This document shows, in pieces, positions 7,615-62,357 of a stretch of DNA of 64,000 nucleotides; the first letter of the stretch is position 1, and every line of letters starts with the position of its first letter. A program made the position numbers and the translations under genes. The DNA comes from Eledone cirrhosa (taxonomy: Eukaryota), in the NCBI GenBank assembly GCA_964016885.1, contig OZ024744.1, positions 80,414,001 through 80,478,000 on the forward strand, given 5' to 3'. The notes beneath the pieces are model-generated. The model made no database searches. It was not told the DNA's origin and saw only the letters and a list, made by a program, of their open reading frames with translations.

Positions 7615-8406
7615 GTGGCGAAAATTCAAAACCGAATCTGAGCTTTCTCGCCTCTGGGACAAGCCGTGGTTAGTTGTTTACGCCCGGTAGACCAACCCCT
7701 TGGGATATGCTAAACACAGGTCAGATGTTGTTTACGCCTGGCAGAAAAGAGGTCAGATATATCCATCCTTCTAAATTCAACCGTTATAAATACAAGTATT
7801 GTTTACGCACGGCAGACCAACCCCTTGGGAGATGCTAACCAAAGGTCAGAAAATATATCTATCCTTCTAACTTCAACCCTTATAAATACAAGGGTTGTTT
7901 ACACCCGGCAGAAAAAGTGAGACTACAGACAAGACAGGTGGCATTTACACGCTCTCGTCACGAAAAAAACAGTCTGACCACTAATTTCTCACACGCATTT
8001 CCCGCTTGGCTGATTGAATCCTACTACTGCTAAAACAAGAAAGTATACTGATACGCACACACGCACACATAGTAAGTTCACACTGTTTGCATTTTTATAC
8101 GCCCCATTTCTGCCTGTCATATTGTATCTTTCAGATACAATACAAATTATATTATAATCGTATTCTGTGATACTTGTATTTACGTGGCTCGTAGAGCCAC
8201 CAACTTATTGTACGAATATTTCATGTTATAGATTTTATCATCCAATATTCAAATTAAATATTGTTATAATAAAATAAACATTGTAACAACACAATCCTGG
8301 TATTATTCTTTGCATTGAAACCATCATACCAACAATTCCATCTATCCGTTACAACTGGTGACCCCGTGAAACAGATACACAACCTTCTGATTACTCACTA
8401 CAAACC

Positions 8407-9165
8407 ATGTCTCTAACACACGACGATTCATCTACGGCAGAAATGGCAGTCCGGGCGGCGTTTACATTAAGGATACCATCATTCTGGGTGCACGATCCAA
8501 CACTGTGGTTCGCGCTCATCGAAGCGCAGTTCACATCGAACCGGATCGTTAGCGAGGCATCTGGTCTCACACATGTCATTGGTTCGATGTCTCCGGAGAT
8601 TATGAATGAGGTTCGAGACCTCATTTTAGGACCACCCGGCTCTGTGTCATATGACACATTTAAAACGACGTTAATTAAGAGGATGTCGGAGTCGCAGCAG
8701 AAGCGCTTGCACCAGTTCCTCATATCGGAGGAATTAGGAGATAAAATTTCGACGCAAATCCTACGAGAACATAAACTCCCGGATGAAATTTTCAAGCAAC
8801 TCTTCCTCCAGCGTTTGCCTTCTACCACACAAGTTGTCTTAGCGTCCACCAGGTAGTCCACCACCATTGAAGAACTCGCCGATAAGATAATCGAGGTACC
8901 ACATCCGCACTCAACTTTAGCGAATGTGACGCCAGCCCTGCCTTCCACCAATCCTTTCCTTCGGCCCTCCGGTGCCACAGAGATGCCCGATCTACACCAG
9001 TTACTGGCACAGCAAGCAACACAGATACAGGCTTTGACGCAACAAATTCAGGCCTTGTCACTGGGTAACCCTGCCATGCGTCGGTCTACCAGTCGAACTC
9101 GCCGATTTGGTGATCGCTCAAGAAGTCCGAGCGCATCCCATGATTCACCAGAAATGTGTTGGAGT
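8407..9165 (+). pseudogene. Gypsy gag (in-frame stop at 8854-8856)
   Basis: LRIPSFWVHDPTLWFALIEAQF, YDTFKTTLIKR, EELGD and LFLQRLP motifs, followed in frame by an RSRSPS-rich tail. Confidence 0.85.
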
Positions 9166-10748
9166 CAGCATCATCCCGGTTTCCTGCCTTCCTGGAAAAA
9201 GGAAAGAAACACCAGCCTGGCTCCATGCTGTGAATCATTCACCTATTCCGACCTAAGGAGAGCAGTCCCTGACACTAAATTTAGGACTACGCTGCACTTT
9301 CCAGTGGGTATTCGTTGTGGCTAAGCTGCCGATCACTATTTTAGGAGCTGATTTTCTTCAGCACTTCTCACTGCTAGTGGACCTGAAAAACCAACGACTC
9401 GTTGACAACTCCACTGGTCTCGCTGTGCGCAGCATAGCCGCTCGGACAGCCACATTCAATCCAGTTATTTCACGATCGGCAACAACAACCCGGCACAGCT
9501 ATATAATCAATAAATACCCAGACGTAGCTCGACCAGTATTCAACGACTGCCCTGTAAAACATGACGTCACCCACCACATAAAAACACACGGCCCACCTGT
9601 CGCTGCACGACCGTCTGAAGTCGGTCAGACAAGAATGTCAACACATGCTGGATCTCAGCATCATACGTCCGTCCAGCAGCAACTGGTCCTCACCCATACA
9701 TCGTCGAACGACTGGCGAATCTGTGGCGACTACCGTGCACTGAACAACTGCACCGTGCCTGACTCTTATCCAGTGCCTCATCTACAGGACTTCTCTAGCT
9801 CGCTGCACGGAGCTCGCATATTTTCGAAGATCGATCTTGTGCGAGCTTACAATCAGATACCTGTGGAGCCCGCTGATATTCCGAAGACCTCCGTCACAAC
9901 ACCCTTTGGAATGTTCGAATTCCTGCGCATGCCTTTCGGGTTGCGTAATGCAGCGCAGACATTCCAGCGATTCCTCTATACAGTCACCAGAGGTCTACCA
10001 TTTGTATACGCATACATCGATGACTTCCTGGAGGCCAGCGGCTCCGATGAAGAACATGAGAGGCACCTGGACCTGCTATTCGCACGTTTGCGTGAATGCG
10101 GAATTGTTATCAACCCCAGCAAGTGTGAGTTCGGAGTTGCGTCTCTTCATTTTCTGGGACACATCATTGATGAAGATGGCATTCGCCCACTTAAGGAGAA
10201 AGTCAAATCCATCATTGATTTTCCACAGCCCGCATCTCTCCGCAAACTGCGAGAATTTCTTGGCCTGGTGAACTTCTACAGAAGATTTAAACCCCACTGT
10301 GCAATCGCTCACAGATTTACTGCGGCAGCGTACAACCAAAAACGCGAACATCAATCTCAGCGAAAAAGAATGTACCGCTTTCGCTGAGTTGAAGAAAATG
10401 TTGTCCGAGTCTACAATGCTAAGTTCCCCCAAACCTGACGCCCCAATGTGTTTATTGACTGATGCATCCGATTTCGGAGTTGGAGGTGTGCTTCAACAAC
10501 TCTCTGGCGATATTTGGCGACCTGTATCTTTTTTCTCTAAGTGATTTAAACCCGCCGAAAATAAGTACAGCACATTCAGTCGTGAATTATTGGCAGCATA
10601 CCTTGCTGTCAAGCATTTTCGATACATGCTAGAAGGTCGTGTGTTCTCCATATACACCGACCACAAACCACTAGTGTACGCGTTCAACGCCAAGCCTGAC
10701 CGCCACTCACCCAGGGAGGTCCGACATCTGGACTTCATTTCTCAGTAC
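9165..10748 (+). pseudogene. Gypsy pol (protease remnant, RT, RNase H), disrupted
   Basis: [74 protein letters not shown] and YTDHKPL; frameshifts and stops present. Confidence 0.9.
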
Positions 10749-11530
10749 ATGTTATAGATTTTATCATTCAATATTCAAATTGAATATTGTTATAATAAAA
10801 TAAATATTGTAACAACACAATCCTGGTACTATTCTTTGCATTGAAACCATCATACCAACAAACCCATCTATCCGTTACAACTGAATTCCACTTATTCGTT
10901 ACAAACCTGTCTGAAAGTAACGATAAAATGGGAAGTGTAAGATCATGTACAATATATATGTTCGGCTATTTCACTACATCAGCTTGCCGAACAATTACAA
11001 TTTCTAGGAATTTCTCGTTGCTTATTTTTGTTCTTCTAGTTGCTATACAGGTTATGTACCATATTTACGAATGCTCGACTATCTCGACAATTTGCGAATA
11101 CTCACGTAAGTGTAAGTGTATGTATGTGTGTGTGTAAATATATATATATTGCGTTTCGCTAATTTCTACCGGCCGAAATGTGATTCTCGCTAAATTATAT
11201 TTATATATATCTATATATAGTAAGTAGCACACCCACAAACTGTAGCAGTTATCATTAAGTTCCGGGTTGACTTGGTCAGGCGATAAAAGTGACGCAATTA
11301 TCAAAACAGTCAGATTTTTCTTATTAAGTTGTTATCTACGACTCCTTCTGAGGACATTTAATTAGTAACCCATGACAATCGTTTTATATTAACTAATAGA
11401 ACGTGTTCTTTATTCTTGGGATATCAACTGAACTGAAGAGAAGAAACGTACCCCAATTACACAATCATTTCATTATTATCTTACTCCGTTTCTCATTCTA
11501 CTTAACTGTCAATAGATATTACATTCAACT

Positions 11531-12388
11531 ATGGATTACGCAGATGCACACCCTATTGCAGGTATATATTTTAATGAGAGAGACATTACACTACCTACTG
11601 CATGTAAAATGCCAGTTGATGGAAGTATTGAGTGTGGAAGTACCAGTTATGTTATGGATCCCAATAAAAGGAACCTAGCTTTAATAATCAATAATGAAGA
11701 ATTTGATAAATCGACTGGTTTGCTTGATCGACAAGGATCCGATAAAGATCAATCGGTTATGGAAACAGTATTGAAATCATTACATTTTGAAGTAATTACT
11801 CGAAAGAATTTATCAGAGAAACAAACTATACAAATCTTTGAAGATATAGCTTCGATGGATCACAGAAATGATAACTGCTTCGTTTGTATTATGTTGAGTC
11901 ACGGGGAAGAAGATAACCAGATATGGTGCACAGATAATAAGGTAAAACTTGACAGTTTAGTTGAAATGTTACTTCCTGATCGATGTCTGTCTTTAAAAGG
12001 TAAACCTAAACTATTTTTCATACAAGCCTGTCGAGGATCGAAACTGGATAGTGGTGAACTGCTTCACGATGCTGAAGTTAGTCAATGGAGTAAATATGAA
12101 AATATCAAATCTTACAATATACCTCAATGGGTAGACGTACTTATAGCTCAATCTACTGTCCCCGGATTTTTCTCCTGGAGAAATGAAACTACTGGATCCT
12201 GGTTTATACAATCGCTAGCCAAAGTTCTGCGTAAAGACGGAAGTCAACATGAACTGCAAAGACTAATGATTTCAGTAAATCGTATGGTAGCCTATGAATA
12301 TCAGTCTAATAATGTGGATTTGTATGGAATGAAACAGGTTCCATATATAGCGAACATGTTAACAAAAGAATTATACTTTTACAAGTAA
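11531..12388 (+). CDS. Effector-type (caspase-3/7-like) caspase, copy 1, catalytically canonical
   Basis: 285 aa, intronless. ALIINN, R-x-GS, LSHG (catalytic His), KPKLFFIQACRG (Cys codon 12029-12031), SWRN, GSWFIQ, KQVP..MLTK; short prodomain. Confidence 0.93.
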   Translation: MDYADAHPIAGIYFNERDITLPTACKMPVDGSIECGSTSYVMDPNKRNLALIINNEEFDKSTGLLDRQGSDKDQSVMETVLKSLHFEVITRKNLSEKQTIQIFEDIASMDHRNDNCFVCIMLSHGEEDNQIWCTDNKVKLDSLVEMLLPDRCLSLKGKPKLFFIQACRGSKLDSGELLHDAEVSQWSKYENIKSYNIPQWVDVLIAQSTVPGFFSWRNETTGSWFIQSLAKVLRKDGSQHELQRLMISVNRMVAYEYQSNNVDLYGMKQVPYIANMLTKELYFYK

Positions 12389-12477
12389 ATACTTTCTTAT
12401 TAATTCATAATTTGCAAAAATTCATCTTTGAAGGTTTTTGTTTATGATTTCTTCGGTTATTGATATAAAGATAGTTT

Positions 12478-12517
12478 AATAAACGTTGATTGTTAAAAAA
12501 CATTTAAAAAAAAAAAA
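12478..12517 (+). terminator. Polyadenylation signal AATAAA and downstream A-tract (repeated in each caspase unit)
   Basis: AATAAA at 12478-12483 and A12 at 12506-12517; equivalents near 14141 and 15844. Confidence 0.6.
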
Positions 12518-12652
12518 TAATTATAAGTTTATAAAATATTCCTGAAGAACATTATCGTTTCTACCCCCACCACTAACTTTTAATTATAACATTAATGAAA
12601 CTTATTCATTTCAACAATTAATCTAATTTTGTAATTTTAATTAAGAAATATT

Positions 12653-12819
12653 GGTGGATTGGCAGTATCAGTAGAGGGTCGGACGCAATGCTTTCCAGCA
12701 TAGTTACGTCCCTTTACGATCTGAGTTCAAATCCTGCCGAGGTTGACTTTGCCTTTCATCCTTAGCGGGTCGATAAAATAAAGTACCAGTAATGCACTGG
12801 CTAATTGCTGGCCTTGTGC
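12653..12819 (+). mobile_element. Tail-less SINE at the junction of caspase units 1 and 2
   Basis: Same family as 4699-4897 but ends at ggccttgtgc, without the ctaaagtagaaac(att)n tail. Confidence 0.9.
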
Positions 12820-13193
12820 GAATACTCACGTAAGTGTAAGTGTATGTATGTGTGTGTGTAAATATATATATATATATCAATATATAGTAGTACACCCACA
12901 AACTGTAGCAGTTATCATTAAGTTCCGGGTTGACTTGGTCAGCCGATAAAAGTGACGCAATTATCAAAACAGTCAGATTTTTCTTATTAAGTTGTTATCT
13001 ACGACTCCTTCTGAGGACATTTAATTAGTAACCCATGACAATCGTTTTATATTAACTAATAGAACGTGTTCTTTATTCTTGGGATATCAACTGAACTGAA
13101 GAGAAGAAACGTACCCCAATTACACAATCATTTCGTTATTATCTTACTCCGTTTCTCATTCTACTTAACTGTCAATAGATATTACATTCAACT

Positions 13194-14051
13194 ATGGATT
13201 ACACAGATGCACGACCTATTACAGGTATATATTTTAATGAGAGAGACATTACACTACCTACTGCATGTAAAATGCCAGTTGATGGAAGTATTGAGTGTGG
13301 AAGTACCAGTTATGTTATGGATCCCAATAAAAGGAACCTAGCTTTAATAATCAATAATGAAGAATTTGATAAATCGACTGGTTTGCTTGATCGACAAGGA
13401 TCCGATAAAGATCAATCGGTTATGGAAACAGTATTGAAATCATTACATTTTGAAGTAATTACTCGAAAGAATTTATCAGAGAAACAAACTATACAAATCT
13501 TTGAAGATATAGCTTCGATGGATCACAGAAACAATAACTGCTTCGTTTGTATTATATTGAGTCACGGGGAAGAAGAAAACCAGATATGGTGCACAGATAA
13601 TAAGGTAAAACTTGACAGTTTAGTTGAAATGTTACTTCCTGATCGATGTCTGTCTTTAAAAGGTAAACCTAAACTATTTTTCATACAAGCCAGTCGAGGA
13701 TCGAAACTGGATAGTGGTGCACTGCTTCACGATGCTGAAGTTAGTCAATGGAGTAAATATGAAAATATCAAATCTTACAATATACCTCAATGGCCAGACG
13801 TACTTATAGCTCAATCTACTGTCCCCGGATTTTTATCCTGGAGAAATGAAACTACTGGATCCTGGTTTATACAATCGCTAGCCAAAGTTCTGCGTAAAGA
13901 CGGAAGTCAACATGAACTGCAAAGACTAATGATTTCAGTAAATCGTATGGTAGCCTATGAATATCAGTCTAATAATGTGAATTTGTATGGAATGAAACAG
14001 GTTCCATATATAGCGAACATGTTAACAAAAGAATTATACTTTTACAAGTAA
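13194..14051 (+). CDS. Caspase-3/7-like copy 2, catalytic Cys-to-Ser (QASRG); predicted inactive pseudo-caspase with an intact ORF
   Basis: Full-length 285-aa ORF. Codon AGT at 13692-13694 replaces TGT; SHG and SWRN are retained. Confidence 0.88.
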   Translation: MDYTDARPITGIYFNERDITLPTACKMPVDGSIECGSTSYVMDPNKRNLALIINNEEFDKSTGLLDRQGSDKDQSVMETVLKSLHFEVITRKNLSEKQTIQIFEDIASMDHRNNNCFVCIILSHGEEENQIWCTDNKVKLDSLVEMLLPDRCLSLKGKPKLFFIQASRGSKLDSGALLHDAEVSQWSKYENIKSYNIPQWPDVLIAQSTVPGFLSWRNETTGSWFIQSLAKVLRKDGSQHELQRLMISVNRMVAYEYQSNNVNLYGMKQVPYIANMLTKELYFYK

Positions 14052-14314
14052 ATACTTTCTTATTAATTCATAATTTGCAAAAATTCATCTTTGAAGGTTT
14101 TTGTTTATGATTTCTTCGGTTATTGATATAAAGATAGTTTAATAAACGTTGATTGTTAAAAAACATTTAAAAAAAAAAATAATTATAAGTTTATAAAATA
14201 TTCCTGAAGAACATTATCGTTTCTACCCCCACCACTAACTGTTAATTATAACATTAATGAAACTTATTCATTTCAACAATTAATCTAATTTTGTAATATT
14301 AATTAAGAAACATT

Positions 14315-14481
14315 GGTGGATTGGCAGTATCAGTAGAGGGTCGGACGCAATGCTTTCCAGCATAGTTACGTCCCTTTACGATCTGAGTTCAAATCCTGCC
14401 GAGGTTGACTTTGCCTTTCATCCTTAGCGGGTCGATAAAATAAAGTACCAGTAATGCACTGGCTAATTGCTGGCGTTGTGC
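14315..14481 (+). mobile_element. Tail-less SINE at the junction of caspase units 2 and 3
   Basis: Near-identical to 12653-12819, with the same breakpoints. Confidence 0.9.
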
Positions 14482-14857
14482 GAATACTCACGTAAGTGTA
14501 AGTGTATGTATGTGTGTGTGTAAATATATATATATATATATCAATATATAGTAGTACACCCACAAACTGTAGCAGTTATCATTAAGTTCCGGGTTGACTT
14601 GGTCAGGCGATAAAAGTGACGCAATTATCAAAACAGTCAGATTTTTCTTATTAAGTTGTTATCTACGACTCCTTCTGAGGACATTTAATTAGTAACCCAT
14701 GACAATCGTTTTATATTAACTAATAGAACGTGTTCTTTATTCTTGGGATATCAACTGAACTGAAGAGAAGAAACGTACCCCAATTACACAATCATTTCAT
14801 TATTATCTTACTCCGTTTCTCATTCTACTTAACTGTCAATAGATATTACATTCAACT

Positions 14858-15760
14858 ATGGATTACACAGATGCACACCCTATTGCAGGTATATATTTTA
14901 ATGAGAGAGACATTACACTACCTACTGCATGTAAAATGCCAGTTGATGGAAGTATTGAGTGTGGAAGTACCAGTTATGTTATGGATCCCAATAAAAGTAA
15001 CCTAGCTTTAATAATCAATAATGAAGAATTTGATAAATCGACTGGTTTGCTTGATCGAGAAGGATCCGATAAAGATCAATCGGTTATGGAAACAGTATTG
15101 AAATCATTACATTTTGAAGTAATTACTCGAAAGAATTTATCAGAGAAACAAACTATACAAATCTTTGAAGATATAGCTTCGATGGATCACAGAAACAATA
15201 ACTGCTTCGTTTGTATTATATTGAGTCACGGGGAAGAAGAAAACCAGATATGGTGCACAGATAATAAGGTAAAACTTGACAGTTTAGTTGAAATGTTACT
15301 TCCTGATCGATGTCCGTCTTTAAAAGGTAAACCTAAACTATTTTTCATACAAGCCTGTCGAGGAGTGAAATATGATTGTGGTGCACTGCTTCAACAAGCC
15401 TGTCGAGGATCGAAACTGGATAGTGGTGAACTGCTTCACGATGCTGAAGTTAGTCAATGGAGTAAATATGAAAATATCAAATCTTACAATATACCTCAAT
15501 GGGTAGACGTACTTATAGCTCAATCTACTGTCCCCGGATTTTTCTCCTGGAGAAATGAAACTACTGGATCCTGGTTTATACAATCGCTAGCCAAAGTTCT
15601 GCGTAAAGACGGAAGTCAACATGAACTGCAAAGACTAATGATTTCAGTAAATCATATGGTAGCCTATGAATATCAGTCTAATAATGTGGATATGAATCGA
15701 ATGAAACAGATTCCATATATAGCGAACATGTTAACAAAAGAATTATACTTTTACAAGTAA
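14858..15760 (+). CDS. Caspase-3/7-like copy 3, with a duplicated QACRG segment
   Basis: 300 aa. FFIQACRGVKYDCGALLQ-QACRGSKLDSGELLHD; in-frame 45-bp repeat at 15350-15394 and 15395-15439. Confidence 0.9.
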   Translation: MDYTDAHPIAGIYFNERDITLPTACKMPVDGSIECGSTSYVMDPNKSNLALIINNEEFDKSTGLLDREGSDKDQSVMETVLKSLHFEVITRKNLSEKQTIQIFEDIASMDHRNNNCFVCIILSHGEEENQIWCTDNKVKLDSLVEMLLPDRCPSLKGKPKLFFIQACRGVKYDCGALLQQACRGSKLDSGELLHDAEVSQWSKYENIKSYNIPQWVDVLIAQSTVPGFFSWRNETTGSWFIQSLAKVLRKDGSQHELQRLMISVNHMVAYEYQSNNVDMNRMKQIPYIANMLTKELYFYK

Positions 15761-16947
15761 ATACTTTCTTATTAATTCATAATTTGCAAAAATTCATCTT
15801 TGAAGGTGTATGATTTCTTCGGTTATTGATATAAAGATAGTTTAATAAACGTTGATTGTTAAAAAACATAAAAAAAAAAAAATGATTATAAGTTTATAAA
15901 ATATTCCTGAAGAACATTATCGTTTCTACCCCACCACTAACTGTTAATTATAACATTAATGAAACTTATTCATTTCAACAATTAATCTAATTTTGTAATA
16001 TTAATTAAGAAACATTACATAATTAAAGTAACTTTTCTTTTACAGTTGTTGTCCAGTTGATTTGTTATGGAATGTAGTGAAAATATGACTACCCCACTCC
16101 ATTTTTATTTCTTTTTGTAATATGACGAAATAATCTGCTTCGTGTATTGTTGATGTCGTTAGAAAGTCGGACAAATAATTTGCAGTATTTTTTGTCTGGC
16201 TCTGTAGCAGAATGATAGTCGTGGTCGCCAGTGTGGTAAAATGATGGTATCCTCGTTGGATTGTCCTGTCGACATAGACGTGAGGGAAGGTCCCTCGTCT
16301 ATTTACCATCTTTGTATTTACAATATTCCTTTCGACAGGTCGCCAATTCCAGCAGCATGGATTATATATGTCATTGAGACACGAGTAACATAATAATGAT
16401 TTCAACATCAGAAATTAGAGATGAAATGTATGTTTATTTTTGATGTAGCACAAACAATGTTTGTTAACTTATATGGTTGAAGTTACACATAAAAAGAGGT
16501 TACAAAAGGGAGTGTGCCATTGCGCCGGAAAGCCGGCAGGCTAGGGTGCAAAATCTCACCGTTACATTGTACGTATTGCTGGTTCGAAGTTCCTGGTGCG
16601 AGAGATAGATTCTTCAAATCTTCGCGGGGAATTTCTTCCTCAGGGCGCGTAGGGATACATCCTCTTCTACTGGCGCTGATTGGCTGAACTGAGCCAAATC
16701 ACGCACAGAGAATGTATGTGAGCCCGCGGAATGTAGGTCACTACAGCTCTATACATTCCGTGTTTATATCTAGCTGAGGTCCACCTTTCCTTTCATCTTT
16801 CCGAGGTTGATAAAATAAAGAATTTTAAATCTTACTGATTGACACATTAAGCTTCCATAATTTTTATAGTTTTTTTTTAACATACTATATAATTCGTATT
16901 AATATTGGTCGTAACTTTAATTAATAAGTATTATTAAATTTGTAAGC

Positions 16948-38883: not shown

Positions 38884-40926
38884 TTAATGTCGTTCATCCC
38901 ACTGAATATAAAAACAAAACACAAAAGTTACCATGACAACGACTCCCTTCTGTAGTAGTAGCAGTACCATCTCAAAATAACATCACCACAACAACAACAA
39001 CACCGACAGCCTCAATGTAAACACTGATGACGCCGGCAACAACAACAACAAACAAAACATCAACAACAACAACAAGAGCAAGAAAGACAACACCAACAAC
39101 AAGAGCAATGGAGGCGCCACCTTTGCAGCGGCAGCAGCGAAAAGAAAGCGCTTTTTCAATGTAGATATTAGCGATAAGGAACAGCAGTTGGCCCAGGCGT
39201 GGAGGTTAATTAAACGAGAGAAGGGCTGGGCAAACCTGACCATCCCGGACGGGGAAATAGCGGCCATGCAAAGGAGGATGGTGTACTTTCCTGCAGGACG
39301 GGACAACAATCCAACTGGTCACTGAGGTAAGAAGGCCGCACTGCTTCGTCTGCGGGGAAGCAACGCATCTGCAAGCCTTCTGCTCTCAGCTCAAAAATGC
39401 AGGGGGTCGCAAACGTCCTTTGTTGCCAGTGTCAGCACGGAAAGCTGCACCACCACCACCACCACAAAAAACAACACCAACAAAGACACGGGTATCCCCA
39501 CCAACACCAAAAACAGCCGGACCACCACCAACACAGAAACCAATCCAAGTGGAAAACGAGGAAAGCTCTCCCACTCCCCCTACCCCTCCAATGATACACA
39601 TACACAAAACAATAAACGCACGCACAGACCGTTTGACTTCCAGCAGTGAAGATGAAGGAAAACCTAAAAGTGTCAAAAAACAAAAGAAAAAAAGCCCAAA
39701 CAAAACACAACAAAAAATACAGACACCACCAACGCAAACACTTCCTCAATAACATCAGCACCAACATCAACATCAGCACCAACATCAACATCAGCACCAA
39801 CATCAACATCAACACCAACATCAACATCAACACCACCTCCACAATCCCCGAAACAAACACAAGAACAAATAAACACACAGACACCTGAAATTGCAGACAC
39901 CACACCTACAACAAACACAGACATACCCGAAACAACACCACCAAAACAATCACCACCATAGTCAGCAAAACGAAAACAAATAAAACCACACCAACAAAAT
40001 ATTAAAAACTTCGTGCTTGTCAGAAGGGCCAACGATAAACTGATGGCCCTCTTAGCACGAAGCGAGGACATTCAAACAGAGGAGGATATCTTTGAAATGA
40101 CCACATTTTGAGTGCCAGAAGATTTGCTTCTGGTCCGAATGTCGCTCGATTCCTTCAAAGAAATTCGGCAGAGCTTTCCTCAAGACGTAGGAACCCCGAA
40201 TGTGAAACCCACATCGAGACTTTTAAAGGGGTTCCCATAAAAACCCCCACCAACCATGGAGGTCGAACCACCCGACCTTCACAAGACCCCGGGGGTAAGT
40301 AAGCCTTCCCTCTCTCTTTTAGTTTGCCAACATGGCCATATTAAGAGTAGGAAGTTTAAATCTTCGCGGTCTGGGGTCACCCTGGAAGCAGGGTCGCCTG
40401 CTCAACGACCTCAGGTCTCTGGAAATGGATGTCATTGCCGTCAGCGAGACCTGGATTTCGGACACGCGCGCACTAGCCCCCATTTTCGACGACTATCAGA
40501 TCTTCGCATCTGTTTGCAGGCCAGGAATGGGAGGTGGGGTGGCAGTGCTGTTTAGGAAAGGCCTGGATCTCGAGGTAAGGTCGATCTTCCGGGACCCGGG
40601 CGGTAAGTTGGTGGTCCTGGATGTGAGCAGTAGCGAAGGTGGTGCCTTTAGACTGCTGGCCGTCTATGCCCCTACTGGGGCCGGACGACCGGACTTCTTT
40701 AGGCGCCTGGAAAACTTTCTGGGTACGTCTCGCCCTTTACTGTTAGCGGGGGACTGGAACGGCATCTTAGACGCACGCCGGGATTGTGTGGGAGTAGCTG
40801 ATAGGAGCGGGGGGTGCAAAAGCCTCAAGCACCTAATCAGCCAGCTCCAACTGTCTGACAGGTATCGACTAGATTTCCCCAATGCGCCAGTGTGGACGTG
40901 AACCAACCGCATAGGGTCATCTAGAT
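38884..40926 (+). mobile_element. Tx1/L1-like LINE remnant: deleted ORF1 plus APE endonuclease, truncated by a hAT insertion
   Basis: N-rich ORF1 segment, zinc knuckle CFVCGEATHLQAFC (~39341), and ORF 40332-40901 with SLNLRGL, AVSETW, AVYAP and LAGDWN. Confidence 0.85.
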
Positions 40927-41375
40927 CAAAGGTTCTCAACGAGGCATATGCACCCCCGGGGGTGTTTTGGAACTCCAGGGGGCGTTTTGGGGCAAGGGGG
41001 CGTCAGGGGGCACTGGAAGACTCTTTACTTTGGTAAGTTTTATAAGCCAGATTTGTATGTCTCTGAGACAGCCAGTGTGAATGCATTTGAATGAGCTTGC
41101 AGATAGCATAACTATGGTATGACCGCAGCTGTAAGCAGGTGTGCAGGCGTATCTAGACATAAACCGGCAATTGAGATCCTAATAATGGAAAAACCCACAA
41201 TAAACTGGGTCAAGGACACTGAGTGCAGCCAGTTAGAATCTTGTTTTTCCTTCACCGATAACAATGTATTTCATGTCTGAAATGTTTGACTCAACCGTAA
41301 CGAGTTAACACTATGTAGATCTATTTTATTTCCTATTGTATAAATAATATTACAAATATAAAAAAGAAAAGAAAA

Positions 41376-41623
41376 AACACATAAGCAGGTAGCACACACA
41401 TCTAGGACCACATACAACACACAGGCAGGTAATACACACATCTAGGACTACATACAATTCATAATCAGGTAGCACACACATCTAGGACCACATACCACAC
41501 ATAAGCAGGTAATACACACATCTAGGACCACATGCAATACATAAGCAAGTAATACATACATCTAGAAATACATACAACACACAGGAAGGTAATACATACA
41601 TTTAGGACCACATACAACACACA
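41376..41623. repeat. Short (~6 monomer) outlier array of the 40-bp satellite inside the hAT element
   Basis: Same monomer and orientation as 17964-38883, with more substitutions. Confidence 0.92.
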
Positions 41624-48025: not shown

Positions 48026-49285
48026 CTATAGCACCTCTTTGTAGACGATATTGCGTGTCATCCCTTGAGGAGAGTAAGCAAAAAGTCCATTCCTGCTCCC
48101 TGCGCGGGAACAGGCAACATAAAGTTGGCCATGGGAGAAGCATGGCTCCCCCAAATGGATGCCCGCCACCGACAATGTTTGCCCTTGTGACTTGTTAATG
48201 GACATGGCAAAACATGGTCTCACCGGGAATTGGGATCGCCGGAAATCGAACGGGATATCTGACGCCGAGAGGAAAAGGTTCATCCTTGGAATGAAAACAT
48301 TCTCCCCTCTCCCGCACCCCGTTACAATGGTGGCCTCAATCAAGTGGGTGTCAGTGACTTGACGACCATGCGAGTACCGTTGCACTGCTTTGGTGGACGC
48401 AAGTTCCTTATTAGCATAATGGGACAGCCAACCCTAAGCTTAATAATGTGAGGTGGGAGCCCTGGGGGCTCAAGGAGATTTAATAACTCAACCGGATAAT
48501 TAACGATATCGTCGGGGTCTGATTTGAAGATGTGCTCTTTACCGGGAATCTTCTGAATCAGCTGCTCGTTAATAAAATTAACCATGGTATTTTTCGGAGC
48601 AAGGATGGCTCTTTCGCTGAGCCAATCGAGGTTTTTTAAAGTTAGATGAGACATTAGGAAAAACTGCTTCCCAAAGGTCAGAAGGGCTGCTCACAATGTT
48701 GCACAGGGTGTCGATTGCTATGCCGCCCTTGTCATCCGCAGGGATCTTGCCCTCACCAAGTGCTAAAATGTTCTGTGCTGCAGACATGTTGTCACCATGC
48801 AAATGAGCACGCATATTTGTGCTCAGGTACAAACTATTCACCTGGAGCCACAACATGGACGACTTAAGACAGGCACGCACTTCATCAGCTCTTGTCCCTT
48901 TGGGGATGACAGGCAGCGTTTTTCGAAAATCCCCTGATAGCAGAAGGGTTACGCCACCCATAGGAGCCGTAGAATCCCTAATGTCTTTCCGGGCCTCGTC
49001 CAATGCCTCAAGGGCACCCTTGTGTGCCATTGTGCACTCATCCCAAACAATGAGGCAACATCTTTTGAGAACCAGAGCTTTGTGTGAACTCTTGCTGATA
49101 TTGCATGTTGGTGTCTCAGTTTTTACTAAATCCAAAGGGAGTTTAAAGGTTGAATGTGCTGTCCTGCCTCCCGGCAGCAAAGTAGCAGCGATCCCGGACG
49201 ATGCAACGGACAACGCAACTTTTTTCTCTTGACGAATCTTAGCGAGAATCAAATTCGTTACAAAAGTTTTTCCGGTACCCCCAGG
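48026..49285 (-). pseudogene. Helitron PIF1 helicase, frameshifted
   Basis: [71 protein letters not shown] and NIVYKEVL across three frames. Confidence 0.92.
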
Positions 49286-49305
49286 ACCTTTTTTTATTGG
49301 GGGGA

Positions 49306-50052
49306 TCAGGGTTTTTTTTTTTTTGACCTTGAGGTATAACCAGTCAGTAGTTCCTTCAAAGGCTCTGGCGGTTCCGTAAGAGGGGGCAAGGTGACCTTAC
49401 CGTTTAAGCAGCACATTGCAGGTGGCTCCCCAGCCCACTTTGTAGCATTGCAGAATTGGCAATTGAAGCGCATCTCGCCTATATTTATGTCAGAGCGCAT
49501 CGAGTAATTAACGTTTTGCTCATACTTGAAAGCCCGTAGGTGCCAGTAAGGGCTGTTGGGGCTCGTCACACCGCATGCAGCTTCTCGCCGTCGACTGTTA
49601 CGCTTGAACGTAGAACATTGGTCGTGTGGTTGGTGGAAAGGTCTGGCAGCAATAGCAGAAGCAACATTTGCAATGCTAATGGACCGCCCGTCTGCATCTT
49701 TAGAAGCTATGGAAGTAGTCATAGCTGCAGCGTTCGTAGGAAGGCGAGCCGTCCGTTGTTTTAAACGTTCCAAAGACCTGGAAGCAGCATTAGTCGCAGC
49801 GTTTCTAGCCAGGCGCTTCGACCTTTGTTCACGGCTCTCTGAAGCCCTGGAAGAAGCCTGGTATGAAGCCATTTTGGCTAGGCGTGCGGTGCGCTGTTGG
49901 AAACTTTCAGCGGCTCGACATTCTGCTGAACGTAAGGCTGTCTGTGAAAGTCTTGAAGCATTTTCCTCAGAGGACTCGTTTGCTATAGTAGCATTTTGCG
50001 CCACTGCTGACGCGGTATGTCGACTGAGGCGACTTCTCTTTTTAGGTGGCAT
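49306..50052 (-). pseudogene. Helitron Rep/Hel N-terminus (basic repeats and zinc-binding motif)
   Basis: MPPKKRS.., RAAES..RTARL repeats, IGEM..CQFCNATKWAGEPPAMCCLNGKVTLPPL..PPEPLKELL; ends at an A-run junction. Confidence 0.85.
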
Positions 50053-50514
50053 TTTATGTCCAAAAGAAAGGGTGAAAGTTACTTCTACAGAAAAATTGAC
50101 TTTGAAAGTCTACTCTCTCTTTATGAATATTGTTATTGTTGTTGTGATACAAATGTTAGTAAGTAAATGGGTATCGAAAAATAAAGGGTGAAAGTTACTT
50201 CAACATAAAAATTGACTTTGAAAGTATAAGGCTGATAATTGAATGTAAAAAGATTGATAAGAAAGCCCCCCCCCCCCCCCCCCCCCCAAAAAAAAATGTA
50301 CAGGTATTTGTATGTATGTGTGTATTTTTATGTCGAAAAGAAAGGGTTAAAGTTACTTCTACAGAAAAATTTAGTTTGAAAGTGTAAGGCCGATGTGTGT
50401 GTAAATTAAGTGACAGGTATTTGTATGTATGTGTGTATATGTATGTATGTGTGTATGAAAGTGTAAGGCCGATGTGTGTGTAAATTAAGTGACAGGTATT
50501 TGTATGTATGTGTG

Positions 50515-54443: not shown

Positions 54444-55324
54444 ATATATATATATATTTCTTAAGGTTTGTTGGTTCACCACTAGATAGAACTGGTCATT
54501 CCGTATGGTCAATCCTGGTGTAATATTGTGAAGAGTACTCAACGCAGTGCAGTTCACCCATCTTCATTTGTGTAGCTGGTGGTGCGAATACGGAGTTAAT
54601 TATAAATGAAATAACAGGAGGTTGGACTGGTGTAAATCCTTGAAAGGTTTATTATACTATGATCATTTCAATGACTGGATTCCATATGAATCCGGTGATA
54701 TCATCAGGTATTGGAATATAACAAAGGAATATGTAAAAAGCCATGGGTCCGAAAAACCATGGGTCTGGGAAACCAGAGACAGAAAGGGCGGCTGACCAAC
54801 TAGCTTCACAGCTAGCCGCTCTCAAAGTGTTGGCAACCGAAAACTACCAGTGAATATCTGGTAAAGGGGCGCAGGCCTATCATATACTACCACCACTCCG
54901 TCAAAGAAGAAAGGGAAGAAAGAAAGAAAGAAAGAAAGAAAGGGAGAAAGAAGTGTAGTGTAAGGGTCAAACTACATTCATGTTAGAAAATGCCGCGAAA
55001 AAAATGCTACCCAAAGAATCTATAGTGGGTGTCTGTATGGTCTAATGTGTGAACCGAAGATTGGAACGCTAAACTTATGTTGCGAGTTATAGGATGAAAT
55101 AAATTAAATTAAAAATATTATATTGCAAAATGGTAAATTGAAAAATAGAGGTAGCGAGATTTATTTATTTAACGAACTTACGGAGAGAGTCTTATATGAA
55201 AAAAATGTTTTTATTTAATTCCATAAGATATTAGGATGGGATATAGAGTAAAGATTTCGACTGGGAGTTCCAGCCAGCACACCCACCACCACGAGTCAGC
55301 CAGTCTCGAGTGGTATCGTCCAGC

Positions 55325-56765
55325 GATCGTCAACAACAGGTGGTGGTTCGCCCTGAAAAGGGCAATTAAAGTAGAGTCGATTAGGTTTAGCAAAGGAGTA
55401 GTGATAGAGGAAAATAGAGTAGAGGGAGGGCTAGTCAGAAAGCTAGAAGAGGCGTTTAGGACAGGCATCGCAACCGACGTGCTTGCAGCGAGATTGGCAC
55501 TCGATCAATTCTTCAACGCAAAACACGAAGGCTGCGTTGTCAGAGCTAGAGCGCGTGCTCTGAAACACGAGGAGACAAAAGCCGTCCAATGGGCCCGGGT
55601 GGCAGAGGCGCGACGTGGCAACAAAGACACAATTCGCTCTTTGTCTGACCAAAACGGGTGCGTGATGCTCGAACCCGAGCGGATGTGTGAAGCTTTTCAG
55701 CAGCACTTTGCTGAACTGTTCGGGAGTGACGGCGGCCCGGATCGGGTCATGGACTTCAGTGCATACCTCGACGGACTGCCTCGGCTCTCGACGACCGCAG
55801 CACAGTGTTGCGAAAAGCCAATAACAGCCGGTGAAATACGGGAAGCGATGGCTAACTGCACAAGGGGTAAATCGCCAGGTTTGGATGGTCTACCCTACAA
55901 GCTTTATGCATTTATGCCAGACTTGTTCGGTGACCTCTTGGCAGACGTCTACTGCAATTGGCAGCAGAACGGGAGCATTCCCAGTTTTGTGAGCCGGGAA
56001 GCAGTGGCGCTGCTGAGAAAAGACCCGAACAAGGGGGATGTTATCGATAATTTCAGGCCCATAACCCTGCATTGCTGACTTGTGGAGCTATGTCGAACAG
56101 TTGCTGTCGCGTGTGGGACTGATACGGTTGTCGACTGAGTCCATTGTGCAGATGGTCTCGCCGTCTTCCTTCGAGGAGGAAGGGCAGGCGGTTTTCATCT
56201 GCCTGGTGGCCATGGCGAAAGAGATTGTGTGGTGGACAAGGTTAAAAGGGTTAAAGACAGACACTTTCCTCTTCGGCGAATCCCTAATTAACTTCTTCAA
56301 GTTTCACTTGAAGAGGAAAATCAGGGTGGAGAGGCAAGTGCTGCCTTCTAGCAAGTTTGTTGAAAGGTGGGTGAATGTAGTGAGAATGGTCCTAGTGAAC
56401 GGGACCGCTCTGAATATACGTCTGTTTGAGAAATGAAAACATTGAGAGAGGGCGCTTGCTCTGATGGGCAGGGTGGCCGTGGTCTTTTGTGTGGTTTTCG
56501 TCACGAGTAACTTTCGGAGGTTTCCCCCCTATTGGGGAATTTTTCATTGTTTCAATTTTCATTTTTATTGTTTATATATATATATGTTTCTATGTCCTTT
56601 TTTTTTCTTTTCTTATATAAATAATAAAAATATTTACACGCACAAAATCATCATTGTACCGTCCTGTACCGTCCTGTGCCGTCTGTAATGTTTTTCTTGA
56701 TGTCAGCCCTTGTGGCCAATAAAGAAATTATTATTATTATTATTATTATTATTATTTTTATTATT
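55325..56765 (+). mobile_element. Tx1/L1-like LINE 3' fragment with the RT core deleted
   Basis: KSPGLDGLP..NFRPITL joins directly (~56070) to the C-terminal segment homologous to ~62000-62357, then 3' UTR, aataaagaaa and (TTA)n. Confidence 0.85.
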
Positions 56766-57155
56766 GGCGACCTACGTAGTAAATCGTATCATCGTGAGCT
56801 CCGCAAAGGTTTGTTATTTTCAGTTATTTAAAATGCCATTTATGGAAATTTTTTATTGTTAACTGTATATAAGTGCACATACGTTGATTTCTGAAAAGGA
56901 CACCTAAAAAGATTGGGGCCTTGTGCCCAAAATTTAAACTTTTATGATTATCAAAAAATTTCTTTGAAAAAATCATGACTGACTCACCTCTGCACCAAGC
57001 AACTGAGAGCCTTCCTCACAAACTAACACCTCACACCGACACCACCATTGTAAATATTACTACGTTTGCCAACACTAAAAAAAATATAAGCAGTAGCAAT
57101 ATTTTAAATTTGTCTTAGGCAGACATTCATTTCCCGCCATTACCAATGACTGCAG

Positions 57156-58956
57156 GTGTTAAAGCCGCCGCCATCACCACCACCGCGACAACCCCCCCCC
57201 CCCCTCACCACCGCGACAACAGAAACAAAAGAAAAAAATAAATTAACTCGTAATATCGAAATGAATTCAACCAAAATGAACTCTTCCACACCGAACACCA
57301 CTGACGCCACCACCACCACAACTGAAACTAAAATTAATAATAACAAAAATAACGATAACAACAACAGCAACAATGACATTAAGAAAACCACCCTGAGTTT
57401 TGCCAGAGTAGCAAAACAGTGCGAAGCATTTCAGGTAACTCAGGAGGAATTAGAAGAAGCCAAAAAAATGGTAAAGAAAGATGGGTACAGGGTGAGCCTC
57501 ACCCCCCCCACCCCACCTAATAAAATGGACCATCGGCGCCTATGCACCGTGTCTTATCGAACAATTAATATAAAATCGCGCCGAGTGGAACGGGCATCCG
57601 AGTCCCAAATCCAAAAAGCTTTGGGACATGTGTGGGCAAAGAAAACCCACATCAGACGTGGGCAGAAGTATGGAACCGTGGACGTGTTCTTTGAAACACC
57701 ACAGGAGGCTAGAGAACACTCCGTGGCCCCATTAAGAAGTGACGACTTCACACTCTTCCCAAGCTATTGTGGCCAGAGACTCGTAAAGATCAGGGTCATC
57801 CACGTTCCACCGGCCATCGAAATTCCCTGGCTAATAGCTGCTGTCCTCGCCGGCATCGAAGCCAACACCAAGATAATCGAAATAGCGAAAGAAAAGCAGG
57901 AGAACTGGTCCGGATCTGGGATGGAGCTCCTGATCCAAGCGGACCAAAAAAGCATTGAGGAGATCCCAGAGGTAATAGACCTCACTGACAGCAGCCACCT
58001 CACCGTAATTGTCGAGGGCAGAAGGCCTAGGTGTGTCGTTTGTGGTGAAGGAACCCACCTAAGGGCTTTCTGCTCTCAGGCTAAAAGGTTAAGGCCACCT
58101 CTCCTACCCATCCCAGTGACTCAACCATCAACACCACCAGCAGCAGAGATGGCAGCAACAACTGTAGCAGCAACAACAGAAGCAACTGTAACAGCAACAA
58201 CCCCAGCAACAGTAGCAAAACCAACACCACCACCACCCAACGCGCCAGAACTAACACCAGCGCCTACACCATCCACCACGCCACAACCAAAACCAACGCC
58301 TGTGGAGGATTTTCCACTCCCCGGCCTATCACAACTGGAGACAGATTGTGACGACGAGGAGTGGGAAACGGTATCAGGAAAAAAGAAAAAAAGAAACCAA
58401 AAAAGAAAAAAATTCTCTTCCTTCCCCCTCCAAAAACAAAATACAGAGGGAAACAAATAAACTATCAAACAAAAAAGTTAGGACAGACATGCCACCATCC
58501 ACACCAGCATCACCAACCCCATCACCCCAAACACCAACACCATCACCATCACCATCATTAACCCCAACACCACCATCACCTACACCACAAAAGTCACCAA
58601 AATGCGAAACAGAAACAAACCCACAACAAACGCAAACAAAACAAAACAACCAAAACGATACACACTACACAGCATTAAATTTGAACAACAACCAATTATT
58701 ACACTACATCCAACACAACACCAGCATCACAGAAAAAGACTACACAACAACCCAAAAGTTCACACCACCTCCACACATACAAATCACTCACATCACACAG
58801 AAAACGTACATGACACTAAAACAAAAATTCCCCAAAGACATCGGAGACTTCCGACAAGCACTCTCCAGGAGGATTTATAAGGACATCCTTCCTGAGGAGG
58901 CCACAAGCAGTGAAAAAGATGGAGAAACCGTCCTTCCTCTACGAGAAGTAAGGTAA
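57156..58956 (+). pseudogene. LINE ORF1 (RRM-like region plus CCHC knuckle), frameshifted
   Basis: GTVDVFF, and CVVCGEGTHLRAFC (CX2CX4HX4C); Pro/Thr-rich tail continues in the 58348-58956 frame. Confidence 0.8.
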
Positions 58957-58990
58957 GTGGTCTTTCCCATTTTTTCCACTCCATTTCAAC

Positions 58991-61900
58991 ATGACCTCAT
59001 TCAGAATAGGCAGCATAAATGCGCGTGGCTTGGGGTCGTCATGGAAGCAGGGCCACATGCTCAACGACCTCAGGTCACTAAACATAGATGTAGTGGCCAT
59101 CAGCGAGACCAGAATCTCCGAAGCGGCTACGATGTGTACGCATCTCCCAGCCGTCCGGGATCGGGGGGGGGGGGAGTTGCTGTGCTTTTTCGGAGAGGTT
59201 TGGATCTTGCTATACGGGCCATCTTCCTGGACCCAGAAGGTAAGTTGGTGGTGCTGGTCGTGACCAGCGGAGACGGGCAAGCTTTCAGGTTAGTGGCCGT
59301 CTATGCCCCGACAGGAGCAAGACGGCCTGATTTCTTCCGGCGTCTGGAGGCGTTTCTTGGAACGTCCCGCTCTTTAGTCTTAGTGGGCGACTGGAACGGG
59401 ATCTTAGATGCACGCTGGGACTGTGTGGGATTAGTGGATAGGGGAGGAGGGTGCAAGAGTCTCACCAACCTGCTCAGGCGTTTCGAACTGTCTGACAGGT
59501 ACCGATTGGATTTCCCGAATGTGCCAATGTGGACTTGGACAAATCGTATAGGGTCATCCAGATCATATCTAGATAGAGTATTTTGTAGGGAAATAGATAG
59601 GTCTAGCATAGGCTGTCCACAATTCAAGATAGTCAGCTACACGGACCACACATTCGTGATCTGTGTGCTTGACTTAGATAGGTTTCATAGACGAGGACCC
59701 GGCTACTGGAAGCTAAACGCGTCCTTACCAGCGCGCGGGGCCTACAGAGACTGGATTAACGAGCTAGTTAAGCGAGCGTTGACGGGGGCCATCGTCAACA
59801 ACAAGTGGTGGTTTGCTCTGAAAAGAGCAATTAGAATAGAGTCCATTAGGTTTAGTAAGGCTTTAGCAATAGAGAAAAATAGAGCAGAGGGAGAATTAGT
59901 TAGAAAATTAGACGAGGCGCTTAGCAAAGGCATCGCGACCGACGTACTTGCGGCGAAATTGGCCCTTGACCAATTCTTCAATGCAAAGCACGAAGGCTGA
60001 GTTGTCAGAGCCAGGGTGCGTGCTCTCAGACACGAGGGGACGAAAGCCGTTCAATGGGCCCGAGTGGCGGAGGCGCGTCGTGGTAACAAAGCCACGATCC
60101 GGTCTTTGGTGGACCACGACGGGCGCATGCTACTCGATCCCGGGCAAATGTGTGAAGCTTTTCAGCGACACTTCGCACAGCTGTTCGGGGGCAGCGGCGG
60201 GCCGGATCGAGGGATGGACTTTAGTGTCTACCTCGACGGACTGCCGCGGCTCTCGGTCACTGAGGCGGAGTGTTGCGAAAAGCCGATAACAGCCGCTGAA
60301 GTAAGGGAGGCAATGACTGGCTGCACAAGGGGTAAATCGCCTTGTTTGGATGGTCTGCCCTATGAACTTTACGTACAGATGCCAGACTTGTTCGGAGGCC
60401 TCTTGGCGGACGTCTACTGCAACTGGCAACAGAACGGGAGAATTCCCAGCTCTGTGAGCTGTGGCGCTGCTGAGAAAGGATCCGAACAAGGGGGATAACA
60501 TAGATAATTTCAGGCCCATAACTCTGCTAAACACAGAGTTCAAGATTTTGGCCAAGGTGCTAGCAAAGAGGTTGGCGCTTGTCGTTGGTGGTCTGGTGTG
60601 AGAGGCGCAGACAACCACGACAACCTCCACCTCATGCGATACATCGTAGAGAGGGTAGCTATGGAACCTGGCACGGGTGGGTCCTTGATCAATTTAGATC
60701 AGTAGAAAGCATTCGATAGGGTCGACCATCGTTACCTAGCGGCAGTCCTGAGGGCGGCTGGCTTTGGGCCCCTCTTCAGAGGCTGGATCGCTGCCATGCA
60801 CAGCGACATCTGCTCTGTGGTGAGAGTGAACGGTCACCTTTCGGAACTGTTCAACATTATGCGCTCGGTCCGCCAAGGATGTCCCCTCTCGTCCCTCTTG
60901 TACGTATTGACTCTCGAGCCATTACTGCACAAACTGGAGACGTTGAGGGGGGTCCCGCGCGAACTAGGATGCGGAAGATCCGTGTCAGCATATGCGGACG
61001 ATGTCACCGTATTGGTGTCGAACGCCAAACACATCGAGGCGATCGGCACTACACTAAGAGAATACGAAGCGGTAACAGGAGCAATGATCAACCAGGAAAA
61101 GTCAGTGGGCCTGCAGCTCGGCACCTGGAGAGGCAGGTCCATGGCGTCCAACAGCGTCGTCGGGCGCTGGACGGACGGACCGTTTAAATTGCTAGGGGTC
61201 TGGTTCGGTCCGGACCTCCAGACGGACAAATACTGGGACGAGGTGACGAGCAGGGTGGCTTCTCTCACCCAGAAATGGGCGGAGCAGAAGCTATCCCTGA
61301 AAGGTCGAGCGGAGGTGGCTAACGCGTACATCGCGTCCGTCATCTACTACCGCCTGACCGTCGTACCTTGTCCTAAGCCCCGCCTGACTGCGCTGGAGCG
61401 TTTGCTCTTTCGCTTTTTGTGGAAGGGACGCGCTCCGATGGTCAGGTGGTCCATCTGCTGTCAACACCTGCTACGTGGAGGGCTGGGCATGCCGTGGCTG
61501 ATGATGCGCAGACACGCGCTCAGGCTACGACATCTCCACCTCTTCCTCGACGGTGATCAGGTGTGGTCGCCGTTTGCTAGACACATCTTTCCCCAGCTCG
61601 TCTCCTTGACGGAGCTGCAGTCCTGGGTCAAGCGAAGACCGAAAGGGAGCGCTTGGAGACTGGAATGTCTTCAGGCGCTCACAGCCCTCGACCAATCCGG
61701 CAATGTGATCGGTTGAAACTCCACCTTGGCGTTCTATAGAGGATTAGTGGAGGGGAAGAGCGACAACGTACTTGGAGAAACTCTAGGCGTCGACGAAAAT
61801 CAACTAGCCAATCTCTTCGGAAGGACTTTCGGGCCGGGGCCTATGGACAACTTCCAGAAATCCCTGGCCTGGCAGTGTTACCGAGGAGCTTTGCCAGTTC

Positions 61901-62357
61901 GGGATAAACTCTACAGGCATGGAGGTGCCGTCAGCCGGGCATGTCCGAGATGCGCGCAGGGCGACGAAACCGTCCTGCACGCACTCGTCCAGTGTCCGAG
62001 CATTGCTGACTGTGGGTTTATGTCGAACACCTGCTGTCACGTGTAGGACGGATCCAGCTATCAGCTGAGTCCATTGTGAGGATTGCCCCGCCCTCTTCCG
62101 TTAGCCGGGAAGGGCAGGCAGTTTTTATCTATCGGGTGGCCATGGCGAAAGAGATAGTATGGTGGACACGTTTGAAAGGGCTGAAGACGAGCACTTACCT
62201 CTTCGCTGATGCTCTGATTAACTTTTTCAAATTTCATTTGAAAAGGAAAATCAGGGTAGAGAGGGAAGTGCTCTCTTCCCAGCATTTTGTTGAAAGAAGG
62301 GTGAGAGAAGCAAGTATGGCCCGAGTGAATGGGCCTACTCTGAGTATGTGTCTGTAA
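58991..62357 (+). pseudogene. LINE ORF2 (APE endonuclease, RT, C-terminal Zn motif), disrupted
   Basis: SINARGL, ISET, GDWN, YLDR, YTDH, GYWKLN, SVRQGCPLS, AYADD and CPRC..ETVLHALVQC; several stops and frameshifts. Confidence 0.92.

Follow-up and report, generated by a model that had tools for sequence, protein, structure and literature searches.

The window analysed here, which comprises 64,000 nucleotides of the Eledone cirrhosa assembly GCA_964016885.1 (contig OZ024744.1, positions 80,414,001 to 80,478,000, forward strand), contains between positions 11531 and 15760 three intact, intronless open reading frames (ORFs) for caspase-3/7-like proteins, arranged head-to-tail and named copies 1 to 3. 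We propose, at about an even chance, that they belong to a young recombining octopod family of effector caspases that is diversifying at the loops contacting substrates and inhibitors. In this explanation, the trio would be recent tandem copies inside a six-member recombining family of executioner caspases, in which loop changes would have accumulated through diversifying selection. Copies 1 and 3 are predicted to have one working active site each; copy 2 would be an inactive by-product which, were it expressed, is more likely to soak up inhibitors than to block its siblings. Pathogen caspase inhibitors, host IAPs (inhibitor of apoptosis proteins) and new substrates are the candidate selective agents. 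We rank this proposal above a selected decoy, neutral decay and assembly inflation, in that descending order.

A tandem trio of caspase genes

The features of the trio are as follows (SINE, short interspersed nuclear element; aa, amino acids; nt, nucleotides).

11093..12816, forward strand: tandem unit 1, with a 5' flank containing TG/TA repeats, the ORF, a 3' flank and a truncated SINE (self-BLAST)
11531..12388, forward strand: copy 1 ORF, 285 aa, His124 and Cys167 intact, QACRG, N-terminus DYAD-AHPI
12029-12031: copy 1 Cys codon, TGT
12653..12819, forward strand: 3'-truncated SINE-like repeat of very high repeat depth, which meets the beginning of the following unit in a short TGC overlap
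12817..14478, forward strand: tandem unit 2 (self-BLAST)
13194..14051, forward strand: copy 2 ORF, 285 aa, Cys167 replaced by Ser, QASRG, N-terminus DYTD-ARPI; other private changes Pro201, Leu214 and Asn263
13209..13220, forward strand: copy 2 ARPI codons, a candidate IAP-binding motif that a cut after Asp5 would expose
13692..13694, forward strand: copy 2 catalytic-position codon, AGT (Ser) instead of TGT (Cys)
14315..14481, forward strand: second copy of the truncated SINE, with the same junction
14479..16016, forward strand: tandem unit 3, without a SINE at the site where units 1 and 2 and the paralogue L003 (see below) have one
14858..15760, forward strand: copy 3 ORF, 300 aa, QACRG-x10-QACRG, a single canonical Cys167, linker extended by 15 residues
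15350..15439, forward strand: copy 3 in-frame 45-nt duplication, units 15350-15394 and 15395-15439

The repeating unit is about 1.66 kb long, each ORF lies inside one whole unit, and the three units start with the same 57 bases (11093-11149, 12817-12873 and 14479-14535, by self-BLAST). The SINE-to-unit junction is present twice, at the ends of units 1 and 2, with a one-base difference between its two occurrences, which fits a real tandem duplication. The window is free of N and all three ORFs are open, with pairwise identities of 98.0-98.5% for DNA and 94.7-96.1% for protein. The sequence-only reading had described three intact ORFs of about 98% identity carrying QACRG, QASRG and QACRG-x10-QACRG, and this description was confirmed in full, far beyond chance. 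Peptidase_C14 (PF00656) is the sole Pfam match in all three proteins (196-200 bits, E about 1e-58) and starts at residue 47-48, leaving a short prodomain without CARD or DED, and the closest solved structures, by sequence and by fold, are caspase-3 and caspase-7. The catalytic His and Cys are kept in copies 1 and 3, and copy 2 is without the Cys.

Downstream of the stop, at 12478-12517, an AATAAA followed by a 12-A tract is present with the same sequence in all three units, as is a six-codon upstream ORF found at 14699 in the 5' flank of unit 3. We considered a recent retrocopy on account of this AATAAA and 12-A tract and rejected it, because the shared homology and a contig of the public set X3 (see below) extend beyond them.

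Six young copies and their older relatives

The trio is not a self-contained module but half of a six-copy recombining family. A search of the 3.0 Gb genome, whose counts are lower bounds, found three further young copies (L003 to L005) and the following older relative (L006).

L003: young paralogue in inverted orientation, located 75 kb upstream of copy 1
L004: young paralogue on C3
L005: young paralogue at C28:90629321-90630168, 10 Mb away
L006: older intronless and intact caspase paralogue at C14:11891824-11892600, with QASRG encoded through TCT and an altered N-terminus

The six young intronless copies share 89-100% protein identity. In a tree of 37 proteins they form one clade (100/100), sister to L006 (100/98) and nested in the octopod 'caspase-3-like' expansion (O. 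vulgaris, O. sinensis, O. bimaculoides, Argonauta). The closest of the 28 database homologues (E<=1e-60) are Octopus and Argonauta 'caspase-3-like' proteins with 56-65% identity, and the tree unites these named octopod proteins and the young copies in a single clade with 100/100 support. The young copies resemble this expansion and the effector caspases-3 and -7 (C14A) in their short prodomain, His-Cys dyad, QACRG, SWR pocket motif and caspase-3/7 fold. Unlike the named octopod caspases, they form a separate, younger subclade with an A-x-P-I N-terminus, an excess of loop replacements and, close to the His loop and L2', changes to Trp and Gln residues. Helitron capture was considered as a candidate dispersal route on account of TA-rich ends; no terminal motif supports it.

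Our literature searches, at the level of titles and the openings of abstracts and outside subscription papers and supplements, found no description of this family among the matches listed; supplements of PMC11543851 may hold related genes. A combined search on caspase, cephalopod, positive selection, gene conversion and caspase-3-like (four of the five terms) gave no match, and QASRG did not occur among the literature matches listed. The available text of PMC11543851 presents a tree that includes Octopus effector caspases, and that of PMC9389742 covers cephalopod executioner caspases in general terms only. Decoy caspases and birth-and-death families are already known kinds.

Other caspase-like loci were noted in passing. 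L008 and L009 (C1:76.03-76.05 Mb) form an inverted caspase pair 20 kb apart, with two replacements and zero silent differences. L011, L015-L017, L019, L020, L022 and L024 are intronless-looking caspase-like ORFs with the odd active-site motifs SACRG, SSCCE, QCCRD and NTCQ, and this set includes a cluster on C8. In O. sinensis, the protein P0024 is without the catalytic Cys (QAALF).

Replacements concentrate in the substrate loops

The location of the changes is a stronger signal than the excess of replacements. Among the youngest four copies (copies 1-3 and L003), the loops L1-L4 hold 15 of the 27 variable codons while representing 60 of 285 codons (21%; p=3e-5), a clustering matched in only 2 of 285 circular shifts and found again in the trio alone (9 of 19 variable codons, p=0.007). 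This is not a property of coil in general, since 25% of loop codons vary versus 5.3% in other coil (p=0.0009). The replacement rate is 14.5% in loops versus 3.1% in the flanks (p=3e-6), and 2.4% outside loops. In the same four copies, replacements number 33 and silent changes 2 (binomial p 0.001-0.012), with a star-tree omega of 8.7 (p=0.002). Across all six copies, no stop arose in 88 changes (p 0.008-0.02), and all three coding indels are in frame. Taken together, loop clustering and replacement excess probably reflect diversifying selection, as judged from sequence comparison. Executioner caspases are usually few and conserved. A family-level ratio of 33:2, with the changes directed at the substrate loops, points to adaptation, either in response to an inhibitor or toward new substrates.

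Several points weigh against this interpretation. Taken alone, the trio is borderline, with 20 replacements against 2 silent differences (p 0.03-0.12) and an omega of 4.8 (p=0.054), and over all six copies the ratio of 66:22 no longer shows an excess. The overall replacement rate (4.9%) is not significantly above that of the flanks (3.1%, p=0.14), which means that a small number of silent changes makes up some of the signal. Under recombination the premises of tree-based tests do not hold and all the selection tests are weakened, and conversion tracts can cluster changes. Finally, the limits of loops L1-L4 follow caspase-3 numbering, mapped through the alignment; these boundaries were not found in the literature searches. 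The sequence-only reading had the copies differing at the catalytic loop rather than decaying through stops or frameshifts: the loop concentration and the intact frames bear out this part, and the enzyme/decoy/variant module built upon it is supported only in part.

Exchange among copies and the origin of copy 3

Among the six young copies, 80 of 231 informative site pairs fail the four-gamete test, and mosaic allele patterns run across the family. All 28 private codons of L005 fall within codons 7-98 and none within 99-285, and its homology with the trio ends at the coding limits; these two features suggest conversion between loci 10 Mb apart. Copy 3 is itself composite. By manual count, the first of its 45-nt repeats differs from L004 at 3 of 45 positions and from copy 1 at 8 of 45, and the second is identical to copy 1, so that the two repeats differ at 8 of 45 bases. 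Glu176 and Val201 are common to copies 3 and 1 only, Met264 and Asn265 are as in older paralogues, and unit 3 has no SINE. From these affinities we infer that an older allele probably received a copy-1-like tract displaced by 45 nt from its proper register, and the duplication is likely a recombination scar.

The 'doubled' active site formerly read into copy 3 was a misreading, and was rejected because the protein has one His and one positioning strand and the duplication covers just 15 residues. An AlphaFold2 model (27-sequence alignment, mean predicted local distance difference test score (pLDDT) 63, predicted template modelling score 0.68), by which the linker is not resolvable, has the strand placing the catalytic Cys stop at residue 168. 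The second QACRG lies inside residues 168-214, a low-confidence linker (pLDDT <50), without a strand, His or pocket of its own; only the first is canonical. Copy 3 is predicted to be a single-site active enzyme, whose longer linker may shift the activation threshold. In this it would resemble the long-linker caspases-3/6/7 of bivalves and gastropods and the engineered linker-lengthened procaspase-3, where linker length alters activation. One paper, by its title, is said to describe constitutive activation through linker lengthening. As reported, flexible linker inserts raised caspase-3 activity (PMC6571611) and oyster linkers of 63-286 aa inhibit activation (PMC11543851); unlike the latter, copy 3 adds just 15 aa, and the effect could go in either direction.

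Predicted zymogen processing and a candidate IAP-binding N-terminus

By homology with caspase-3, the zymogens would be cut in the linker at LLHD180/A, which aligns with caspase-3 D175, and at the N-terminus at D5/A. The latter cut would expose A-x-P-I, a Smac-like motif for the BIR domains of IAPs. A DxxD followed by A-x-P-I (AHPI, ARPI or ALPI) is present in all six young copies versus 1 of 21 other octopod proteins starting MD[YF]x[DY], with ARPI in copy 2 and L004; an Ala-x-Pro-hydrophobic tetrapeptide thus stands, at the level of sequence, at an exposable N-terminus. Effector caspases are reported to expose Ala-led IAP-binding motifs on cleavage (PMC3972657), and the young copies would in this respect be like drICE with DIAP1 and like Smac AVPI, where cleavage at the N-terminus uncovers a tetrapeptide beginning with Ala, to which type II BIRs bind (PMC3972657). 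Unlike in drICE/DIAP1, the motif of the young copies is Smac-like A-x-P-I with H, R or L as second residue. These three residues are outside the consensus given in the review PMC3972657; ARPI nonetheless binds XIAP BIR3 in vitro (PMC3760131). The genome contains at least 25 BIR matches. A complex prediction between residues 6-35 of copy 2 and the BIR domain L047 scored 0.17 against a mark of 0.34, gave no verdict and was not used.

As a separate observation, a multi-BIR IAP gene is present as three near-identical local copies at C5:80.08-80.18 Mb and one on C1714 (L043-L046, L054), a recent IAP amplification.

Copy 2, L006 and the nearest known inactive caspases

Copy 2 has lost its catalytic Cys and retains His124, Arg67, Gln165 and Arg217. 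Replacement of Cys by Ser is a standard inactivating change (PMC7586219), and copy 2 is accordingly predicted, as had been supposed, to be catalytically dead. Of the enzyme/decoy/variant module proposed earlier, the intact copies, this predicted loss and the loop differences hold up; a fixed three-part set goes beyond the evidence.

The precedents first invoked were cFLIP with caspase-8 and the nematode CSP-2 and CSP-3. cFLIP carries DEDs and acts on caspase-8, an initiator activated by dimerisation, and CSP-2 and CSP-3 of C. elegans are old, partial and diverged dead caspase-like proteins. The likeness to copy 2 is that of a dead chain which could, in principle, pair with an active caspase. 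Unlike these proteins, copy 2 is full-length and corresponds to a constitutively dimeric effector knocked out at one residue, and the Pfam scan found neither the tandem DEDs of cFLIP nor a CARD in the trio. A closer match is the dead effector paralogue CASPS18 of Aedes aegypti, like copy 2, as predicted, an inactive paralogue that arose by duplication next to an active one, CASPS19. CASPS18 reportedly has Ser for Cys and acts through an IAP, and the primary work on the pair is said to be Bryant et al. 2010. Published accounts present CASPS18 as a decoy enhancing CASPS19 (PMC4840389, PMC3141678). Unlike CASPS18, whose enhancement of its partner is reported experimentally, copy 2 is known from its sequence, identity between the copies is 96%, and its dead allele may not be fixed. 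With this enhancer precedent and the candidate IAP-binding motif, a sponge that raises sibling activity fits better than a cFLIP-like control, and an IAP-sponge role like that of CASPS18 is plausible for copy 2 by analogy.

Public contigs and copy number

Four of the eight public contig sets listed, among which no RNA set was found to hold the genes, were compared (X1 and X2 from one sample, X3 and X5), with X4 and three runs of restriction-site-associated DNA sequencing excluded; contigs were bubble-popped and follow majority paths, and results apply to the pieces listed. Neither the Ser codon nor the 45-nt duplication is among the listed pieces of X1, X2, X3 and X5, which is not absence as such variants can drop out. 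In X1/X2, contigs with L004 differences (6, 10 and 4 in three pieces) have a depth of 10.7-12.5, and copy-1/2/3-type contigs a depth of 27.6, about 2.2-2.6 times as much versus 4 predicted, depth not being copy number. The X1/X2 active-site contig has Cys with Ala176/Ala201 and matches no assembled copy. In X3 (88 million letters, kind unrecorded), a 634-nt piece equals the 5' half of copy 3, from which copy 1 differs at 4 and copy 2 at 7 places, and a 3' piece combines copy-1 codons with a copy-2 flank. X3 depths on trio pieces are 324-534, several neighbouring bins being at 0-4; no listed X3 piece lies over the active site of any copy, the bins there being explained by other pieces, and one bin on copy 1 (depth 102) is without a listed piece. 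Contigs follow majority paths, and for this reason the pieces hint only weakly at expression and at other haplotypes. As for the three-part set, the two samples contain other allele combinations, and the pieces listed lack its two diagnostic variants.

Weighing the alternatives

Selection might have retained copy 2 for its very lack of activity: after cleavage in trans by copy 1 or copy 3 it would uncover ARPI and, its pocket being intact, bind IAPs or pathogen caspase inhibitors and so raise sibling activity, or it would tune its siblings in mixed dimers. We regard this as unlikely, though first among the rivals. It draws on an independent loss of the same residue in L006 (TCT, not AGT), where the frame is intact and the branch omega is 0.29-0.32 (p<=2e-4), both losses being transversions to Ser. 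ARPI is moreover reported to bind XIAP BIR3 tighter than AVPI (Ki 0.12 vs 0.71 uM, PMC3760131). Genomic BIR domains carry a W-F groove motif, which we take to be BIR3-like; the dimer-interface strand is identical in copies 1 and 2, and CASPS18 would provide the precedent by analogy. Against a decoy, one of 20-33 random replacements would strike the Cys codon at 7-12% and either catalytic residue at 14-22%. Pro201 adjoins the Asp equivalent to caspase-3 D192, a residue reported as needed for activity, and Leu214 lies in the S2 pocket, which fits decay. The branch omega leaves the date of the Cys loss in L006 unfixed, and L006 is without the N-terminal motif; QASRG occurs in 0 of the 28 database homologues, and the X1/X2 contig over the active site reads Cys, with the reserve that contigs drop variants. 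L006 is a better decoy candidate than copy 2. A more ambitious version, which we think quite improbable, is an arms-race family with loops shuffled by gene conversion, a Smac-like IAP-binding tail, repeated Cys-to-Ser decoys (copy 2, L006) that would titrate IAPs or pathogen inhibitors, and the copy 3 linker as a pre-sensitised trigger.

Neutral birth-and-death, in which redundant duplicates are relaxed and both the Cys-to-Ser change and the 45-nt duplication are early pseudogenisation before stops, appears improbable to us. With only 22 coding changes in the trio, the probability of seeing no stop is 0.3-0.4, the non-loop replacement rate (2.4%) equals that of the flanks (3.1%), and the neighbourhood is repeat-rich and unstable. 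Such decay would yield neither 33:2 nor a fivefold loop enrichment over other coil, and it sits poorly with zero stops in 88 changes family-wide and with the X3 contig matching copy 3 over 634 nt at depth 354 (run kind unrecorded; a weak expression hint). Still less can be said for alleles or haplotypes placed in tandem by the assembly with fewer real copies, which we consider very unlikely: the X1/X2 depth ratio of about 2.2-2.6 instead of 4 and the lack of a listed contig piece spanning the array would agree with it, but copy-number variation between haplotypes would account for the depth just as well. The novel SINE-to-unit junction is present two times, with its one-base difference, the assembly has no gaps here, four different local copies cannot equal two alleles, and errors would neither avoid silent sites nor favour loops. 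If the neutral or haplotype readings alone hold, this is an ordinary young gene cluster. Under the family diversifying at its loops, the copies, 95-96% alike, would amount to a set of natural mutants (a dead Cys, a lengthened linker, exchanged L1 and L4 loops and an IAP-binding tail that varies) on which the birth of a decoy caspase could be tested directly.

Neighbourhood of the trio

A broken LTR (long terminal repeat)-retrotransposon-like remnant with DUF7041 and RVT_1 matches (8362-10745) lies directly upstream of unit 1. A 21-kb satellite of 80-bp units (17964-38883, 261.5 copies, 93% match) begins 2 kb past the trio, and a short 40-bp array related to it is found at 41376-41621. Fragments at 964-1936 and 48026-50109, and at 38981-41002 and 55227-62357, resemble what we take to be Helitron PIF1 helicase and ORF1/ORF2 of long interspersed nuclear elements, respectively.

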